Below are positions 32,848 to 42,690 of a DNA stretch of 64,000 nucleotides, one piece after another. Source of the stretch: Nanobdellota archaeon. Its GTDB lineage: Archaea > Nanobdellota > Nanobdellia > Pacearchaeales > GW2011-AR1. The notes under the pieces are model-generated. The model had not been told where the DNA came from and did not search any database. It saw only the letters and a program-made list of their open reading frames with translations. Numbering within the stretch: the stretch's first letter is position 1; every line of letters begins with the position of its first letter. The DNA lies in assembly GCA_038045705.1 (NCBI GenBank), contig JBBSXO010000001.1:64001-128000 (forward strand), given 5' to 3'. A program made the position numbers and the translations under genes.

Positions 32848-32929
32848 CGCCGCCGCCCGGAATCGAACCGGGAGATCCCGAAGGAAGGTAGTTCTCAAGA
32901 CTACTGGAGTACCATTGTCCCACAGCGGC
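32848..32929 (-). tRNA. tRNA-Ser (anticodon TGA)
   Basis: GCCGCTG/CGGCGGC acceptor stem, GTAGT-CTTGAGA-ACTAC anticodon arm, long variable arm, GTTCGATTC T-loop, G discriminator, no encoded CCA. Confidence 0.95.
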
Positions 32930-33485
32930 TTAACAATAAATTCTTCTCGACCTTATTTAAAGATAACTGATAAGACTTGTAAATTTGTCTTTGAGTGTAC
33001 TCTCTTACTGCCTTTTTCTTACCAATAAATTCTGCAATTAATTCAGATAAATCTTCTAGAAATAATTTACTTCCCAAATGAAATCTAATTGATTTATCAG
33101 TAGTATAACCATCAGTTATTAGCATTCCTTGAATAAATAATAATTTTTCTTTATCCGTTCCATTTTTTATCAGGTGCAAAACTCTCAAAACATCTCTTTT
33201 AACTCCTTCGGGAAAGCCTAGACCTCTAATCTCTTCAAATATTTTGCGAGAAATTTTTACGAAATGCCATATTTCTTGTCGATTATATCTATTTCTAGAA
33301 CTTATGTGCCCTTCTATTTCAAATATATCATAAAATAACCTATTAAATAATAAAACTAACTCTTTTTTAGTATTACAAAATTGAATTGGGTAAGTACGGT
33401 AACCATCACCATTATGTCCTTTAGATAAACAGCCATCTCCACTAAGCATCCCAAGAAATAGCGCAAGCTTCTCACCCTTATCCAT
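32901..33485 (-). CDS. free-standing two-motif LAGLIDADG homing-endonuclease-like protein
   Basis: LALFLGMLSGDG and LLFIQGMLITDG motifs, IQFCNT. Confidence 0.85.
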   Translation of the reverse strand: MDKGEKLALFLGMLSGDGCLSKGHNGDGYRTYPIQFCNTKKELVLLFNRLFYDIFEIEGHISSRNRYNRQEIWHFVKISRKIFEEIRGLGFPEGVKRDVLRVLHLIKNGTDKEKLLFIQGMLITDGYTTDKSIRFHLGSKLFLEDLSELIAEFIGKKKAVREYTQRQIYKSYQLSLNKVEKNLLLSRCGTMVLQ

Positions 33486-33540: not shown

Positions 33541-34071
33541 CTAGTTTTTATTAATCAATTCCCACAAATATCTATCAATAAAATTTCCCTCTATCAGCTT
33601 GTCTTTTTCCATAGTTCCTATTTTTCTAAAACCAGCTTTTTTCAGTAATTTATTAGAAGAAATATTGTTTGTTAGAGTATCAGCAAATAGCTTTTCTAAT
33701 TTCAATTTATTAAAAGAGAAATCTATTGCTTCTTTCAAAGCTTCCAAGGCATAACCATTTCCCCTATAATCTTTACCCAACCAATAACCAACCTTTGCAT
33801 TTTTGTCAGTTTTATTTATATCAAATATATCAATCACCCCTATTATGTTCCCATTATCTTTTAATTGAATCTTGAACATAATAACTGTTTTCTTCTCTTT
33901 CCATTCTTTTTCTATTTCTCGTAATATTTTATTTACTTTACTTTCAGTAAGTGGATAAGGCCAATAGTAAGTAAAGTAACTAATTTCTCTATCATTTCCT
34001 ATCTTAGCTATTTCAAGAGAATCACCTTCAGATACCTGTTTAAGAATAAGCCTCTTTGTTTCTATCTCCAT
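33541..34071 (-). CDS. RimJ/RimL-type GNAT acetyltransferase
   Basis: IETKRLIL, VGYWLGKDYRGNGYA, NISSNKLLKKAGF. Confidence 0.92.
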   Translation of the reverse strand: MEIETKRLILKQVSEGDSLEIAKIGNDREISYFTYYWPYPLTESKVNKILREIEKEWKEKKTVIMFKIQLKDNGNIIGVIDIFDINKTDKNAKVGYWLGKDYRGNGYALEALKEAIDFSFNKLKLEKLFADTLTNNISSNKLLKKAGFRKIGTMEKDKLIEGNFIDRYLWELINKN

Positions 34072-34182: not shown

Positions 34183-34467
34183 TTAGCCAAATAAAGATGC
34201 TAGTCCAGCTGCTGATTCAGAAGGTCTCTCTTCTTTCTTCTCTTCTTTTGCAGGTGCAGATTGTGCAACAGCAGAAGGTGCAGCTACAGCAACATTTGCA
34301 TTCTCAAGTTCAGCGCCAATATCGACACCGTGCAAGCTAGCAATCAATGCCTTTAGCTTTGATTCATCAACCTGACTTCCAGTAGAATGAATAACTTTCT
34401 TTAAGTTTTCTTCATTAACTGGGTGACCTAGTTTATGCAATAATAAAGCTCCGTAGATGTATTCCAT
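34183..34467 (-). CDS. rpl12: ribosomal stalk protein P1 (aL12)
   Basis: MEYIYGALLLH...AAGLASLFG. Confidence 0.97.
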   Translation of the reverse strand: MEYIYGALLLHKLGHPVNEENLKKVIHSTGSQVDESKLKALIASLHGVDIGAELENANVAVAAPSAVAQSAPAKEEKKEERPSESAAGLASLFG

Positions 34468-35267
34468 TACATTCCCTCCTTTGTAATTATAAGTTTTTCA
34501 ATAGCTTTCTCTTCTCTTACAGCCTTAGTGATGAAATATCTAATGGTTTTCTGAGTAGGGTATTTGATATTAATTGCAAAACCAAGAGCTTTCCTAATAA
34601 GTTCTTTAACTTGCTCAAGAGTTCCAACTTTATCAATAACTAGATTAGAATATATTTTATCTTCTTTAGAATCATAAGCAATAATTGGTATAAAACCAAC
34701 TTTCATAGGACTTACATTTAATTTCCCTAAGACACTTGCTACATTAACCTTAATTATTTCACCACTCTTAACAACAATGGCTCCTTTAATTATTTCAAGT
34801 TTTCCTTCAGTAACTTTCACTTTCAATCCAACTCCAGATAATTCTGAAATTGCAGGACCCGCAACTAAATCAGTCGGTCCAGGTTCAATTTCAATATCAC
34901 TTGGGGCAATATCCCCAGTTTTAGCTCTTCTGGAGCTTTGGAAGTCCATAAGTATACTAGATAATTCAAAAGGTTCAGTATCTGAGAAAAGAATAACATA
35001 ATCTGCTTCAATGCTTTTCTTTAGATTTTGTATGCTTCCTTTTTCAATAGACTCAATAGCCTTAATTAATGCGCTTTTTTTAGCAACTCTTAATTCTGCT
35101 AATCCTCGCATTTTTTTCTTTATTTCATTGAATTGTTTTCCAGGAAGTCCTTTAGAAGAAGCAATCATGATAGTTCTATTTCTGTTCATCAAATGAGCTA
35201 GATCTTTTACTATCTGTTTTTTTGCTTCAGATACCACAGTTACGTGTTCAGTCTTCATTTGAGCCAT
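34467..35267 (-). CDS. rpl10: ribosomal protein uL10 (P0), short C-terminus
   Basis: AKTGDIAP.DI.IEPGPT..AGP; between L1 and L12. Confidence 0.96.
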   Translation of the reverse strand: MAQMKTEHVTVVSEAKKQIVKDLAHLMNRNRTIMIASSKGLPGKQFNEIKKKMRGLAELRVAKKSALIKAIESIEKGSIQNLKKSIEADYVILFSDTEPFELSSILMDFQSSRRAKTGDIAPSDIEIEPGPTDLVAGPAISELSGVGLKVKVTEGKLEIIKGAIVVKSGEIIKVNVASVLGKLNVSPMKVGFIPIIAYDSKEDKIYSNLVIDKVGTLEQVKELIRKALGFAINIKYPTQKTIRYFITKAVREEKAIEKLIITKEGM

Positions 35268-35884
35268 TATTTAATCTGAACCTCAACAGGCTTAGTCATC
35301 GTCAGTTTTATCAATGCTTTTTTAACATTATCAATTTTTAAAGGCAAAGCTTGAACAATTCCTTCATAAACTGATTTTGCATTTTCCATAATCTTGACAT
35401 CTTCCATACTTAATTTTCCAACCGCTATTTTGATACTTGCATCTTTGATTCTTATCTTAGCAGACTTAGCAATCTTTTCTAAAGTATTTTTTACTTCATC
35501 TGGGCTATCTTTCATCATAACTCCAAGTTGTGGAGAAGGCATCTTTCCAGTTGGACCCAGAACTTTACCGAATGAACTAGCTACAGATGGCATCAGACTT
35601 CCATGAGCAATGAAAAAATCATATTTTTTAACAAGCTTCTTTAAAGCTTTCTTTTCAGAATATTTAGCAAATTCTGGTTTTGTTATTGTAGGAACAATAT
35701 CGCTTTTTTCGTTCAAGAAAGCACATACTGTTTTATCTTTGAATTTATTTGGTACATCAACTACAAATGATAAATTAGTTTTTCTAAAATCCAGTCCTTT
35801 AAGATTTACAATTAAATCAACAGTCTGATCAAACTTACGTTCTTTCTGATTTCTAAGTTCCTTTAGTGCGTCTTTCAATTCCAT
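35267..35884 (-). CDS. rpl1: 50S ribosomal protein uL1
   Basis: RKFDQTVDLIVNLK, GKVLGPTGKMP, KLTM. Confidence 0.97.
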   Translation of the reverse strand: MELKDALKELRNQKERKFDQTVDLIVNLKGLDFRKTNLSFVVDVPNKFKDKTVCAFLNEKSDIVPTITKPEFAKYSEKKALKKLVKKYDFFIAHGSLMPSVASSFGKVLGPTGKMPSPQLGVMMKDSPDEVKNTLEKIAKSAKIRIKDASIKIAVGKLSMEDVKIMENAKSVYEGIVQALPLKIDNVKKALIKLTMTKPVEVQIK

Positions 35885-36021
35885 GTTTATTTGTCTTCTA
35901 CAGGATGCTTCAACCCATATAATTCAGGGTCAAAGATGTAGTTTAATGACTTTTAAGGTTAATTTAAACGGTTTATAAACTTGTCGTTTAGTTTGAGTTA
36001 ATTTATACCCATTCACTTATC

Positions 36022-36148
36022 AACCGCGCAAAATCAGAATTATTAATAACTTAATCGCGCAAAATAAGCCTTTTATTAAAAAATAGCTATTTTACACATA
36101 AATTTAACCGCGCAAAACAAAGATTTAAATACTTTTAACCGCGCAATA
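36022..36148 (+). repeat. four 12-bp direct repeats AAYCGCGCAAWA, putative operator array
   Basis: Copies at 36022, 36053, 36106 and 36137 (spacing 31, 53, 31 bp). Confidence 0.8.
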
Positions 36149-36152
36149 TCCT

Positions 36153-37229
36153 ATGGAATGGGCAAAACCAAGAGGATATAGCAAGTCTAAAGTAGATTGG
36201 GCGGGAGATGCCTTAATTAGCGATAAAAGTTCAGAGAGTGATTTGGATAAAGCTATTGAGATATTAGTTAATTGGAGAGCTATACACAAGTATCCAATGC
36301 ACATTTTTCATAAGAGGCTAAAAAGTGTTTCGGAGAAAATAGATAAAAACGCATTAGTCGTTGAACGTTTGAAAAGATTTCCTTCCATAATAAAAAAACT
36401 CAAGAGAAAGTACGGTGGAAATGAACCTACGATGAATCTATCTCAAATGCAAGATATTGCAGGCTGTAGAGCTGTTTTGTCCAATGTAGAATTGGTAAGA
36501 AAAATTTACATGGATGGATATGTCAAAGGAGATATCAAACATAAGAAAGTAAATGAAAAAGACTATATTACTTATCCCAAAGAAGATGGGTATAGAAGTA
36601 TCCACCTAATATATAAATACAAAAGTGACAAAGGTAAAAAAAAGGATTTTAATGATCTACTTGTTGAAATTCAGATAAGATCAAAATTACAACATTTGTG
36701 GGCAACAGCAATAGAAACAGTTGATTTTTTTACTAGACAAGCAATAAAATCTAATGAAGGTCAAAAGGAATGGAAAGACTTTTTTAAGCTAGTTAGCTCG
36801 GCATTTGCGCTGATAGAAAATTCTCCTTTAGTCCCAAATACTCCATTAAATCTTAAAGAATTATATTCTCAAATTAAGATAAAAGAAGAAGAATTGCAAG
36901 TTATTAAAATAATGAGTGGATGGACAGAAGCAATAGATGTTTTTCAAAAAGAATCTCAAGAAAAACCACATCTACAGTTATTTTTATTGGAATTAGACAT
37001 AATAGGGGAGAAACTTAACATAACTGGTTATACAAATGGAGAAGAAGAAAAAGCTATATCTGATTATTCAAGAGCTGAAAAAAGAAATCAGGGAAAAAAA
37101 GAATATGATGTAGTTTTAGTAGGAGTTAACGCAGCAAATGAACTGAAGGAAGCCTATCCAAATTATTTCGCAGATACAAGAGAGTTTTTAGAGAATTTAA
37201 AGAAAATAATAACTAAAGCTAGTTCTTGA
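36153..37229 (+). CDS. RelA/SpoT-domain small alarmone synthetase, fused CapRel-like toxin-antitoxin
   Basis: RLKRFPSIIKKL, MQDIAGCR, DYI..PKEDGYRSIH, EIQIRS..QH.WATA, C-terminal AYPNYF. Confidence 0.85.
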   Translation: MEWAKPRGYSKSKVDWAGDALISDKSSESDLDKAIEILVNWRAIHKYPMHIFHKRLKSVSEKIDKNALVVERLKRFPSIIKKLKRKYGGNEPTMNLSQMQDIAGCRAVLSNVELVRKIYMDGYVKGDIKHKKVNEKDYITYPKEDGYRSIHLIYKYKSDKGKKKDFNDLLVEIQIRSKLQHLWATAIETVDFFTRQAIKSNEGQKEWKDFFKLVSSAFALIENSPLVPNTPLNLKELYSQIKIKEEELQVIKIMSGWTEAIDVFQKESQEKPHLQLFLLELDIIGEKLNITGYTNGEEEKAISDYSRAEKRNQGKKEYDVVLVGVNAANELKEAYPNYFADTREFLENLKKIITKASS

Positions 37230-37231
37230 CT

Positions 37232-37681
37232 CTAAGACTTATTCAAAACCTGCAAATATTCTTTAATTCTGCCAACTGCTTGAGGAATAAGAAACTTTTC
37301 TATTTTTTGCTCAAACAAATCATGTAATGTTGCAAACTCAGAAACTCTGTATAGATTATTCTTTTTTTCAACAAGCATAATATCTCTTAATCTTTTTAGT
37401 TGTCTGCGTATATTACTCTCGGCAATTCCTTTAGTTTCTAATGAATTATCTTGTCTCATTTGCGTAACAATATCTCTAACTTCAAAACTTGTTAGCTCTT
37501 TCTTTTCCTTACGGGCTTCTTCAAGAGCAAGTAAAATATCTACTATAATATCTCTGCCATCTCCAGGTTGAAGCAGTCCAATGCTCAAACAAATTTTTCT
37601 TATTATCTCCCTTTTAGAACTATCATAAGGCTTCTCATATTTTCTTAGAGTTATTTCGTTTAATGGGACGTCTCTAGCCAT
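37232..37681 (-). CDS. winged-helix DNA-binding protein
   Basis: GIAESNIRRQLKRLRDIMLVEKKNNLY wHTH pattern; start at MARDVP. Confidence 0.7.
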   Translation of the reverse strand: MARDVPLNEITLRKYEKPYDSSKREIIRKICLSIGLLQPGDGRDIIVDILLALEEARKEKKELTSFEVRDIVTQMRQDNSLETKGIAESNIRRQLKRLRDIMLVEKKNNLYRVSEFATLHDLFEQKIEKFLIPQAVGRIKEYLQVLNKS

Positions 37682-37740
37682 GGTTCTACAAAAACCACAA
37701 TCGTTATAAATGTAATCTTTCAACATCATAAGATTGTAAA

Positions 37741-38094
37741 ATGGAATTAGTTGCATTTTTAGGAGATGATAAAGAAACTTGGGGTCAAGTTACAGGTTTG
37801 ATAAATAGAGGTGAGTGGGAAAAAATAATTCTTGTTAAATCGAAAACATCTGATGAATATATTTCTTCCAAAGATGCCGATATAATCACAGTAGATACTT
37901 CAAAACCTCTTGTAGATTTAAAAGATGATATGATAAAGAAACTAAGACCTAAATTTTCAGGTTTTGATGTTCATGTCTCAATAGCATCTGGAACAGGAAA
38001 AGAACATATGGCTTTAATCAGTGCATTACTTTCAGTACCAGTTGGAGTAAGACTAGTAGTATTTACAAAGAATGGAGTAGAGACAATTAATTAG
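37741..38094 (+). CDS. hypothetical Rossmann-like protein, possibly CARF-like
   Basis: Alternating beta/alpha pattern; DVHVSIASGTGKEHMAL resembles the CARF motif. Confidence 0.5.
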   Translation: MELVAFLGDDKETWGQVTGLINRGEWEKIILVKSKTSDEYISSKDADIITVDTSKPLVDLKDDMIKKLRPKFSGFDVHVSIASGTGKEHMALISALLSVPVGVRLVVFTKNGVETIN

Positions 38095-41592: not shown

Positions 41593-42690
41593 ATGACGGG
41601 TGATTATGAAGATTCTGAATTAAAAAGTGTATCTTCCATTGATAAAGAGTTAGAACAATTGGTAAAGAAACAAGGCGCTCGTGTAAAAGTAATTGGTTGT
41701 GGAGGAGGAGGTGGAAATTCAGTTTCTAGAATGCGCGAAATAGGAATAAAAGGTTGCGAAGTAATTGCAATAAATACAGATGCTCAAGATTTATTATATA
41801 CAAACGCTGATGTAAAAATCTTGATAGGCAGAGAATTAACAGGAGGTTTAGGAGCTGGAAGTAATCCTAAAATCGGTGAAGAGGCTGCAAAAGAATCAGA
41901 ACAAGAAATTCGTAAGCGTTTAGCAAACTCAGATCTAGTCTTCATAACATGTGGTTTAGGCGGAGGAACAGGTACAGGGTCAGCTCCTGTTGTTGCAGAT
42001 TTAGCTAAAAAAGCAGGAGCACTAGTAATAGGTGTAGTAACTTTACCATTTACAGTAGAAGGTCAGAAAAGAATTGAGAACGCACAGTATGGTCTAGAAA
42101 GATTAGAACAAATAGCAGATACATTAATTGTAGTTCCTAACGATAAGCTGTTAGAATTAGCTCCAGACCTACCTATTCAAACAGCTTTCAAAGTTGCAGA
42201 TGAAATTTTAACCAATGCAGTAAAGGGAATTGCGGAATTAATTACTTCGGCAGGTCTAGTAAATTTAGATTTTGCAGACGTAAAAGCAGTCATGTCAAAC
42301 GGAGGAGTTTCATTGATAGGAATAGGCGAATCAGATAATGCTCAAGACAGAGCAGTAGAAGCAGTTGAACGTGCCATTCATAATCCACTTTTAGATGTAA
42401 ATATAGAATCGGCAAAGGGAGCATTAGTTAACATTATTGGAGGTCCAGACATGTCTCTAGATGAATATAGAAAAGTGATGGAAAGAGTAAGTTCGAAAGT
42501 AGCACCAGATGCAAAAATAATTTCGGGAGCAAAAATATCTCCAGATATGGATAAAACCATCAAGGTATTATTAATAGTTACAGGTGTAAAAAGTCCTCAA
42601 ATAATAGGTTCAAATTCGGGTTACAAAACCAAAGGAGATAACACTTCTTTAGGAACAGAACTAGGCATAAACTTCATAGGAGAAGAATAA
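41593..42690 (+). CDS. ftsZ: cell division protein FtsZ
   Basis: GLGGGTGTG, NLDFADV. Confidence 0.98.
   Translation: MTGDYEDSELKSVSSIDKELEQLVKKQGARVKVIGCGGGGGNSVSRMREIGIKGCEVIAINTDAQDLLYTNADVKILIGRELTGGLGAGSNPKIGEEAAKESEQEIRKRLANSDLVFITCGLGGGTGTGSAPVVADLAKKAGALVIGVVTLPFTVEGQKRIENAQYGLERLEQIADTLIVVPNDKLLELAPDLPIQTAFKVADEILTNAVKGIAELITSAGLVNLDFADVKAVMSNGGVSLIGIGESDNAQDRAVEAVERAIHNPLLDVNIESAKGALVNIIGGPDMSLDEYRKVMERVSSKVAPDAKIISGAKISPDMDKTIKVLLIVTGVKSPQIIGSNSGYKTKGDNTSLGTELGINFIGEE

Follow-up and report, generated by a model that had tools for sequence, protein, structure and literature searches.

A fused CapRel-type toxSAS behind a conserved upstream cassette in a DPANN archaeon: a candidate virus-triggered toxin-sensor

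The open reading frame (ORF) at 36153–37229 of the 64,000-nucleotide stretch analysed here (the window; positions 64,001 to 128,000 of contig JBBSXO010000001.1, assembly GCA_038045705.1) encodes a protein of 358 residues which, about as firmly as sequence and predicted structure permit, is an intact fused CapRel-type toxic small alarmone synthetase (toxSAS). Fused CapRel is a kind of protein already known; what appears to be new is its archaeal branch, together with a conserved cassette upstream of the gene, in which repeated ACCGCGCAAAA sites stand beside a putative TATA box. By analogy with CapRelSJ46 of Salmonella phage SJ46, the protein is probably a single-chain toxin-sensor, namely an autoinhibited tRNA pyrophosphokinase that would be triggered by a virus and would abort the infection.

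Family, fold and conserved residues of the protein

Among proteins of solved structure, the best matches in a sequence search of the PDB are 7ztb_A and 9erv_A (E 5.5e-46, 160 bits), which Foldseek lists as the Salmonella tRNA pyrophosphokinase CapRel, alone (7ZTB) and bound to the phage protein Bas11 Gp54 (9ERV). The alignment runs from residue 9 to 350 of the query and from 15 to 367 of the 373-residue chain, with AYPNYF identical in both. Full-length matches were also obtained to the candidate defence family PDC-S33 of PADLOC (E 2.5e-117), a name that we found nowhere in the literature, and to phrog_4773 of PHROGs (E 2.5e-97). RelQ/RelP-type enzymes match over the core only, at E 3e-11 or weaker and at most 46 bits; the YjbM equivalog model of NCBIfam (NF053588, GTP diphosphokinase) scores 60.7 bits, below its cut-off of 320; and TIGR00691, the model for long RelA/SpoT homologues (RSHs), scores 21.8 bits against a cut-off of 499. 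None of the HD, TGS and ACT domains of long RSHs (Rel/RelA/SpoT) was found in the 358-residue protein with Pfam.

The predicted structure points the same way. An AlphaFold model built from 146 homologues has a mean predicted local distance difference test score (pLDDT) of 92.9 and a predicted template modelling score (pTM) of 0.88, and in the comparison with CapRelSJ46 that the preliminary description of this DNA had proposed, Foldseek ranks 1 to 3 are taken by 9ERV and 7ZTB, with template modelling (TM) scores of 0.79–0.83 by query (TMq) and 0.82–0.87 by target (TMt), over 356–360 columns at 32% identity. For SAS1, SAS2 and RelP, TMq is about 0.4 over some 190 columns. The modelled C-terminal domain consists of strands at residues 274–282, 287–294 and 318–324, with a helix (295–311) between the second and third; two helices follow the last strand, and the YPNY segment lies between them. 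This is the topology reported for the pseudo-zinc-finger domain and hinge of CapRelSJ46 (PMC9712102). The preliminary description, which a model had made from the letters alone, took the protein for a fused CapRel-like toxSAS and not for a RelP/RelQ-type synthetase, and both halves of that reading are borne out by full-length CapRel matches in sequence and structure on the one hand, and by core-only matches to the small housekeeping enzymes on the other. In each of PDB, PADLOC and PHROGs the top match is of CapRel type and full length, and CapRel is the probable subfamily of the protein.

The gene and its parts, as predicted from the alignment to 7ZTB and from the model, are as follows.

36153–37229, + strand: coding sequence of the fused CapRel-type toxSAS, 358 residues plus stop (ORF listing, ATG start)
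36153–36752, + strand: N-terminal toxSYNTH (RelA/SpoT nucleotidyltransferase) domain, residues about 1–200, with the Pfam core (71–185) at 36363–36707
36366–36368, + strand: codon of R72, aligned to the adenine-coordinating R79 of CapRelSJ46 (7ztb_A)
36468–36470, + strand: codon of R106, aligned to R116 of CapRelSJ46 (7ztb_A)
36591–36593, + strand: codon of Y147, the G-loop tyrosine, aligned to the catalytic Y155 of CapRelSJ46 (7ztb_A)
36765–36962, + strand: helical 'anchor' linker, residues about 205–270 (DSSP helices 205–221, 234–248 and 250–270; aligned to 7ZTB)
36963–37124, + strand: sensor/antitoxin-like C-terminal domain of predicted pseudo-zinc-finger topology, residues about 271–324 (AlphaFold model)
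37155–37166, + strand: YPNY, residues 335–338, the putative YXXY autoinhibitory hinge motif (aligned to AYPNYF of 7ZTB, Y352/Y355)

The synthetase motif set is complete, as had been noted, with RLKR at residue 72, DIAGCR at 101, GYRSIH at 146 and EIQIR at 172. RelA_SpoT (PF04607; residues 71–185, E 9.5e-20) is the sole Pfam family in the protein, in keeping with the earlier remark that it has no hydrolase domain; the whole genome holds a single RelA_SpoT gene, and no HD_4 hydrolase was found across its 844 kb (91.5% complete). The toxSYNTH region (residues ~1–200) has an isoelectric point of 9.69. The preliminary description had further placed ELKEAYPNYFAD at the very end of the protein; the segment is indeed present, at residues 330–341 with YPNY at 335–338, and is followed by 17 residues that form a C-terminal helix. 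Two short ORFs on the opposite strand (36125–36304 and 36438–36605) fall inside the CapRel gene and are without support.

Residues to which CapRelSJ46 owes its activity and its control have counterparts here. The numbering of 7ztb_A can be taken as that of the native protein, because R116 lands on an aligned arginine, and on this numbering R72, R106, Y147 and Y335/Y338 correspond to R79, R116, Y155 and Y352/Y355, while V321, L322, G324 and A334 occupy the docking positions V338, L339, A341 and A351. In CapRelSJ46, R79 is reported to coordinate adenine, R116 to contribute both to adenine coordination and to docking of the YXXY helix, Y155 to be the catalytic G-loop tyrosine and Y352/Y355 to form the YXXY hinge, and substitutions in the YXXY motif or its docking site are reported to cause constitutive toxicity (PMC9712102). 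We examined conservation in three homologue alignments, A1 (n = 53), A2 (n = 146) and the archaeal set A5 (n = 57). R72 and Y147 are invariant in all three; R106 is at least 90% conserved in A1 and A2 and invariant in A5; and Y335 and Y338 are invariant or at least 90% conserved throughout, with Y335, N337 and Y338 invariant in A5, where V321, L322, G324 and A334 are likewise invariant or at least 90% conserved. Across the 146 homologues, R72, K74, D101, G104, G146, Y147, R148, E172, Q174 and R176 do not vary. The YXXY motif postulated in the C-terminal region is thus matched, at the level of sequence, by conservation of both YPNY and the residues on which it would dock.

The protein resembles CapRelSJ46 (7ZTB, 9ERV) in length (358 against 373 residues), in domain order, in overall similarity (32% identity, TM 0.79–0.87) and in being encoded by a single gene without a partner. 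It differs in that CapRelSJ46 is a prophage gene whereas this is an archaeal chromosomal gene, in a sensor domain whose sequence is unrelated in detail, and in its putative archaeal promoter (TATA box, leaderless) with repeated ACCGCGCAAAA sites. The bicistronic CapRel and PhRel systems (CapRel:ATcapRel of Mycobacterium sp. AB308; gp29/gp30 of Phrann) probably share the toxSYNTH subfamily, and the C-terminal part of fused CapRel is reported to be homologous to their separate antitoxins (PMC9712102; bioRxiv 575399); here, however, toxin and antitoxin make up one polypeptide, and among 120 neighbouring ORFs of 30 loci no second gene is conserved beside it. RelQ/RelP enzymes (YjbM/YwaC; 5DEC, 6FGK, 6EWZ) have in common with it the nucleotidyltransferase core of about 190 residues, but lack a C-terminal sensor domain and a YXXY motif, and they are reported to make (p)ppGpp where CapRel enzymes modify tRNA (bioRxiv 2021.04.30.441581). 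GRel/Pag1B (PANGU), in turn, is described as having a nucleoid-protein activator as partner and an acidic DNA-mimic domain, in contrast to the partnerless gene and CapRel-type C-terminal domain with YXXY found here.

Host, distribution and descent

The host is a Pacearchaeota/Nanoarchaeota-like archaeon, and the gene belongs to a DPANN genome, as had been supposed. The assembly comprises 844,273 bases in 10 contigs, and the window lies in contig C1 (175,668 bases). The genes upstream of CapRel, on the other strand, encode the ribosomal proteins L1, P1 and a P0 that carries the archaeal/eukaryotic RL10P insert; those downstream encode an M50 peptidase, aIF5A, an FKBP-type isomerase and FtsZ. 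P0 has its nearest named relatives in records labelled Nanoarchaeota (85%, 76% and 62% identity) and Candidatus Pacearchaeota (59–82%), and a bacterial ribosomal protein L19 was looked for in the genome and not found. Immediately beyond CapRel, a convergent ORF of 174 residues (37232–37756; no family match in Pfam or NCBIfam) occurs in 17 of 17 genomes of the genus, whether CapRel is present or not, and is a core gene of the genus and not a CapRel partner.

Within the genus, the gap between L1 and the 174-residue ORF (35885–37231 in the window) is a variable slot. It holds CapRel in four genomes, the window's included (the others being G003, G012 and G001), whereas in 11 the junction is without it. 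Seven of these 11 gaps measure 99–227 bp, and the other four, of 474–884 bp, contain ORFs of 265, 194, 152 and 114 residues; tblastn with E values up to 10 found no CapRel remnant in any of the 11, yielding a single chance match of eight residues. In two genomes the slot falls at a contig end, and one of them, G008, carries CapRel elsewhere. In other genera CapRel is flanked by unrelated genes.

On a wider scale, a homologue was found in 7 of 60 related genomes (55–87% identity), and across the phylum in 27 of 400 other genomes of at least 90% completeness (E ≤ 1e-20); by genus, CapRel occurs in 27 of 281, counting the window's own genome. Public protein collections returned 3070 matches at E ≤ 0.001; the 120 best clusters there are 67–100% identical to the window's protein, and the 19 among them that bear an organism name are all archaeal (Nanoarchaeota/Nanoarchaeia, Pacearchaeota, Woesearchaeota, Aenigmatarchaeota or simply 'archaeon'). 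A library clustered at 50% identity yielded 1376 representatives at E ≤ 1e-30. Archaeal CapRel, with hundreds of DPANN relatives, is therefore no rarity, and the gene is patchily distributed and mobile among DPANN archaea. One genome of the same class (G249:C1:683963-684334) has only an open frame of 144 residues, which matches residues 233–356 at 68% identity and represents a remnant or else an antitoxin-like C-terminal piece that stands alone.

Relatives were searched in one genome per species, which gave at least 593 loci; the best 80 (46 labelled Archaea, 34 Bacteria) were combined with seven relatives, one viral contig and the window into unrooted trees of 89 rows. Under LG+C20 with posterior mean site frequencies (PMSF), a single group of 64 rows takes in every archaeal one and is set apart (SH-aLRT 99) from the remaining 25, which are bacterial or viral; its counterpart under LG+G4 has 63 rows (SH-aLRT 94). 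Inside this group sit a five-row bacterial clade, three rows of which bear Patescibacteria-type labels, the long branch L114, and four bacterial-labelled rows nested among archaeal ones (L044, L052, L053 and L056). The trees need five to six changes of domain label, at least two to three of them forced by starred branches. Several record labels are doubtful, for example that of a 1.3-Mb 'Methanosarcinales' genome with a locus G+C of 0.30, which holds archaeal L21e. L056 (G061:C1:80512-81564; 62% identity, genome of about 1.0 Mb, locus G+C 0.29), an archaeal-clade CapRel, is truly bacterial, because it shares the 288-kb contig C1 of G061 with bacterial L19, and no archaeal L21e was found in that genome. 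In G065, L19 is on another contig, and G062 has neither marker.

The mostly-DPANN clade thus also takes in some small-genome bacteria, and documents gene exchange across domains between ultra-small cells. Given how large and diverse the family is in bacteria and phages, the root would be expected among bacteria. The preliminary description had proposed horizontal acquisition, and this holds for the clade, in the form of cross-domain transfer; the present genome, however, did not gain the gene recently, because the gene has a genome-like G+C and occupies the same slot in three congeners.

The available text of the 2011 RSH survey describes capRel as confined to bacteria and archaeal RSHs as very few (PMC3153485), that of the 2019/2020 toxSAS paper places CapRel in bacteria and phages (bioRxiv 575399), and the word 'archaea' is absent from the main text of the CapRelSJ46 paper (PMC9712102). 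A survey of DPANN genomes reports RelA/SpoT frequencies of 69.0% in Diapherotrites, 41.7% in Woesearchaeota, 21.3% in Pacearchaeota and 19.0% in Nanoarchaeota, and, in the text available, predicts a bacterial origin for these genes and discusses them as (p)ppGpp enzymes (PMC8407392). CapRel and DPANN both figure in a preprint that surveys the defence systems of 8,973 archaeal genomes, though not together in its accessible portions. No description of an archaeal CapRel clade was found in the accessible text of these sources; the supplements of the RSH survey and Fig. S34 of PMC8407392 may show some members. If the present assignment is right, then DPANN genes annotated as 'RelA/SpoT', at least those of this clade, should be corrected to CapRel-type toxin-sensors and not be read as evidence for (p)ppGpp. 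More broadly, a large and intact archaeal CapRel branch would extend to archaea the direct sensing of viral proteins that is well understood in bacteria.

The putative promoter-operator cassette upstream of the gene

Two kinds of element precede the coding sequence.

36022–36148, + strand: four direct copies of the 12-nt AACCGCGCAAAA, putative operators, starting at 36022, 36053, 36106 and 36137
36124–36131, + strand: TTTAAATA, putative archaeal TATA box, 22 nt before the ATG (sequence; alignment of 32 upstream regions)

The copies at 36053 and 36137 have one mismatch each and the other two are exact; their spacing (31, 53 and 31 nt) is near whole helical turns. CGCGCAAAA occurs four times in the 844-kb genome, both strands counted, and three of these occurrences are upstream of CapRel. 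A leaderless mRNA is implied, because the putative TATA box lies just 22 nt before the ATG; on archaeal promoter geometry, TTTAAATA is probably the promoter, with transcription starting at or near the ATG. The 11 sequencing runs listed for the gene, which come from three studies, are all of DNA.

This architecture recurs in front of most archaeal-clade CapRel genes in unrelated genomic contexts (L003–L008, L035–L088). In an alignment of 32 upstream regions from varied contexts and lineages, the GCGCA of the copy at -47 and the TTTA of the TATA box are invariant, and the copy at -100 is nearly so. The motif ACCGCGCAAAA is repeated two to four times at fixed positions by the TATA box and travels with the gene; the positions of the repeats (about -47, -100 and -131) are constant across unrelated surroundings, while the repeated word differs in divergent members (TATTACCGC in L071, TTTACCCCA in L083, TCCCGAAAT in L088 and TTGCATGCG in L009). 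A composite pattern, in which GC[GC]CA is followed after 6–18 nt by TTTAWAWA within 80 nt of the start, occurs in 39 of 51 archaeal-clade rows (a total that includes L077, a negative just outside the inner clade), in two of the four nested bacterial-labelled rows and in none of the 33 rows that fall outside the clade. Of the 775 regions upstream of ORFs of at least 120 residues in the window's own genome, four contain it, that of CapRel among them. An exact repeated 9-mer containing G+C is likewise present in 32 of 52 clade CapRel upstream regions (four nested bacterial-labelled rows included) against 29 of 380 controls from the same loci, whereas for other bacterial homologues the figures are 3 of 25 and 34 of 310. 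L056 and L053, both bacterial-labelled, retain two or three copies of the motif (as C[CT]GCGCAA, with TCGCGCAA in one of the L056 copies), and a -35-like hexamer, TTGACA or TTGATA, follows it directly there. No structured RNA upstream of CapRel was found with Rfam, and a type III antitoxin RNA array, which we considered, was rejected, as the upstream repeats share only the 12-nt motif.

Repeated sites of this kind suggest dedicated, possibly autogenous, regulation of the gene. We hypothesize a DNA-binding factor dedicated to the gene, with sites that move and change together with it; the alternatives are a conserved host factor, or recent transfer without decay of the sites. CapRel itself is a candidate for the factor, because no other gene travels with the sites, and it is possible, if doubtful, that the cassette is self-regulating, with CapRel binding the ACCGCGCAAAA sites that flank its own promoter through what could be either its zinc-finger-like C-terminal domain or its basic N-terminal part. 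In autoregulated type II toxin-antitoxin (TA) operons the antitoxin binds repeated operators, and the operator-like sites here similarly flank the promoter of a TA gene; we know of no CapRel protein that binds DNA. Self-binding, if true, would tie production of the toxin-sensor to the state that the protein is in, much as classical TA operons are controlled by their antitoxins. The cassette suggests a level of transcriptional control not previously described for CapRel.

Proposed function and its rivals

On the model of CapRelSJ46, the C-terminal domain would at rest be folded back on the enzyme, with YPNY inserted between R72 and R106 so that ATP could not bind. A trigger protein, most likely a structural protein of an archaeal virus, would bind the sensor domain and hold the enzyme open; the open enzyme would then transfer pyrophosphate from ATP to the 3' CCA ends of tRNA, and the consequent arrest of aminoacylation and translation would abort the infection. 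Expression would be driven by a TATA box with the ACCGCGCAAAA sites of the gene's own cassette on either side, and the transcript would begin close to the ATG or at it. Whatever protein switches the sensor on would be a candidate virus protein, and so a handle on the little-known viruses of DPANN archaea.

Several points weigh against this proposal. Toxicity, tRNA pyrophosphorylation and virus sensing are all carried over from CapRelSJ46 by homology. The accessible text of bioRxiv 2021.04.30.441581 reports no clear signature that separates tRNA-directed from nucleotide-directed toxSASs, and for want of such a signature the assignment of tRNA as substrate derives entirely from subfamily membership; another antiviral toxSAS, GRel/Pag1B, is reported to make pppGpp (bioRxiv 10.64898/2026.04.06.716658). 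Among close relatives, the ratio of non-synonymous to synonymous substitution (dN/dS) in the sensor domain is 0.03–0.08, which is purifying and not diversifying, so that the signature of an arms race is not seen in this domain at short range. Nor does the neighbourhood form a consistent defence island: among the two nearest ORFs on each side of 30 archaeal-clade loci (120 ORFs), most neighbours are housekeeping genes, and no PADLOC defence family has more than four members (mad3 4, AbiLi 4, AriA 3).

The gene is functional and under strong purifying selection as a whole. Pairwise dN/dS between the window's gene and close relatives is 0.05–0.08 overall, with less constraint on the N-terminal 50 residues (0.18–0.32 in two pairs); these values are rough, because dS is at or above about 1, near saturation, in most comparisons. 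Over the longer range, the aligned columns of 173 archaeal-clade sequences have an entropy of 0.81 bits in the enzyme core, 1.38 bits in residues 263–318 and 0.65 bits around the YPNY hinge, and since the second figure exceeds the first, the sensor region is the more variable part, as it is in CapRel, which is a point in favour of the proposal. The commonest Pfam families among the 120 neighbouring ORFs are ribosomal L3 (4), ABC_tran (3), ribosomal L4 (3), AAA_21 (3) and DDE transposase (3), and no conserved partner gene was found among them.

These observations bear on what else the protein might be. A CapRel-type enzyme whose main role is other than virus sensing would show the same architecture, and might serve as a self-regulated TA (addiction) module or as a brake on translation that answers to a cellular cue, such as host contact, starvation signals or a cellular protein. 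Strong purifying selection on the sensor domain, identities of at least 67% in the best 120 clusters across several DPANN lineages, mainly housekeeping neighbourhoods, and an operator-like motif dedicated to the gene and repeated in the manner of autoregulated TA modules would all fit such a role, as would the requirement for FtsZ reported for a bacterial CapRel (PMC13423816). We nonetheless think it rather unlikely, given that every experimentally studied fused CapRel in the accessible text of PMC9712102 and in the 9ERV entry description is an antiphage sensor, and that a patchy distribution (7%) and a variable slot are more in keeping with an accessory defence gene than with a regulator of physiology. 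A housekeeping small alarmone synthetase, supplying (p)ppGpp for a stringent-like response, is a much poorer candidate, and we consider it quite improbable: the RelA_SpoT domain with its intact catalytic motifs, the link drawn between DPANN RelA/SpoT and (p)ppGpp (PMC8407392) and the weak YjbM match would be expected of one, whereas that match reaches just 60.7 of the 320 bits required, RelQ/RelP enzymes align over the core only (TMq ~0.4), and a further 160 residues form a conserved CapRel antitoxin-like domain with YXXY. Moreover, no (p)ppGpp hydrolase was found in the genome, and the gene is present in just 27 of the 400 other genomes of the phylum.

It is scarcely credible, finally, that the gene is bacterial DNA misbinned or misassembled into an archaeal genome. 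The family is mainly bacterial and phage-borne and some close relatives bear bacterial labels, but the gene lies inside the 175,668-base contig between archaeal L1/P0/P1 and aIF5A, the G+C around it (0.31) equals that of the rest of the window, three congeners carry it in the same slot, and its putative promoter is of the archaeal TATA type. The reading of the protein as a virus-triggered, autoinhibited tRNA pyrophosphokinase is accordingly the one that we favour.

Copies in viral collections were also considered. Of 43 such loci, 42 are 34–45% identical to the window's protein and just one, L115 (4508–5575 of a 17.7-kb contig; 62% identity), is archaeal-type. It was rejected as a virus-borne archaeal copy: its neighbours include a Schlafen-group-3 helicase/STAND-like ATPase, a HEPN protein, a CARF-HTH regulator and a UDG-like gene, the region resembling a defence island instead, and no virus hallmark gene turned up among the 10 ORFs tested in its surroundings. 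Company of this kind speaks for the defence reading of the gene.

Some features of the locus are recorded in their own right. CapRel stands beside ribosomal-protein operons unusually often (L1/P0/P1 at 34183–35884 here, and the four L3 and three L4 ORFs elsewhere), which may merely reflect gene-dense small genomes. The FtsZ gene (41593–42690) lies 4.4 kb downstream of CapRel; a bacterial CapRel is reported to need the host protein FtsZ for its activation (PMC13423816), and the proximity is probably coincidence, because FtsZ is a core gene. On the far side of the ribosomal genes, a LAGLIDADG endonuclease ORF (32901–33485, - strand) and the adjoining GNAT gene (33541–34071) are without counterpart in the loci of congeners, and the endonuclease ORF overlaps the 5' part of a tRNA-Ser(tga) gene (32848–32929, - strand) that is called by ARAGORN and not reported by Rfam at its gathering score.

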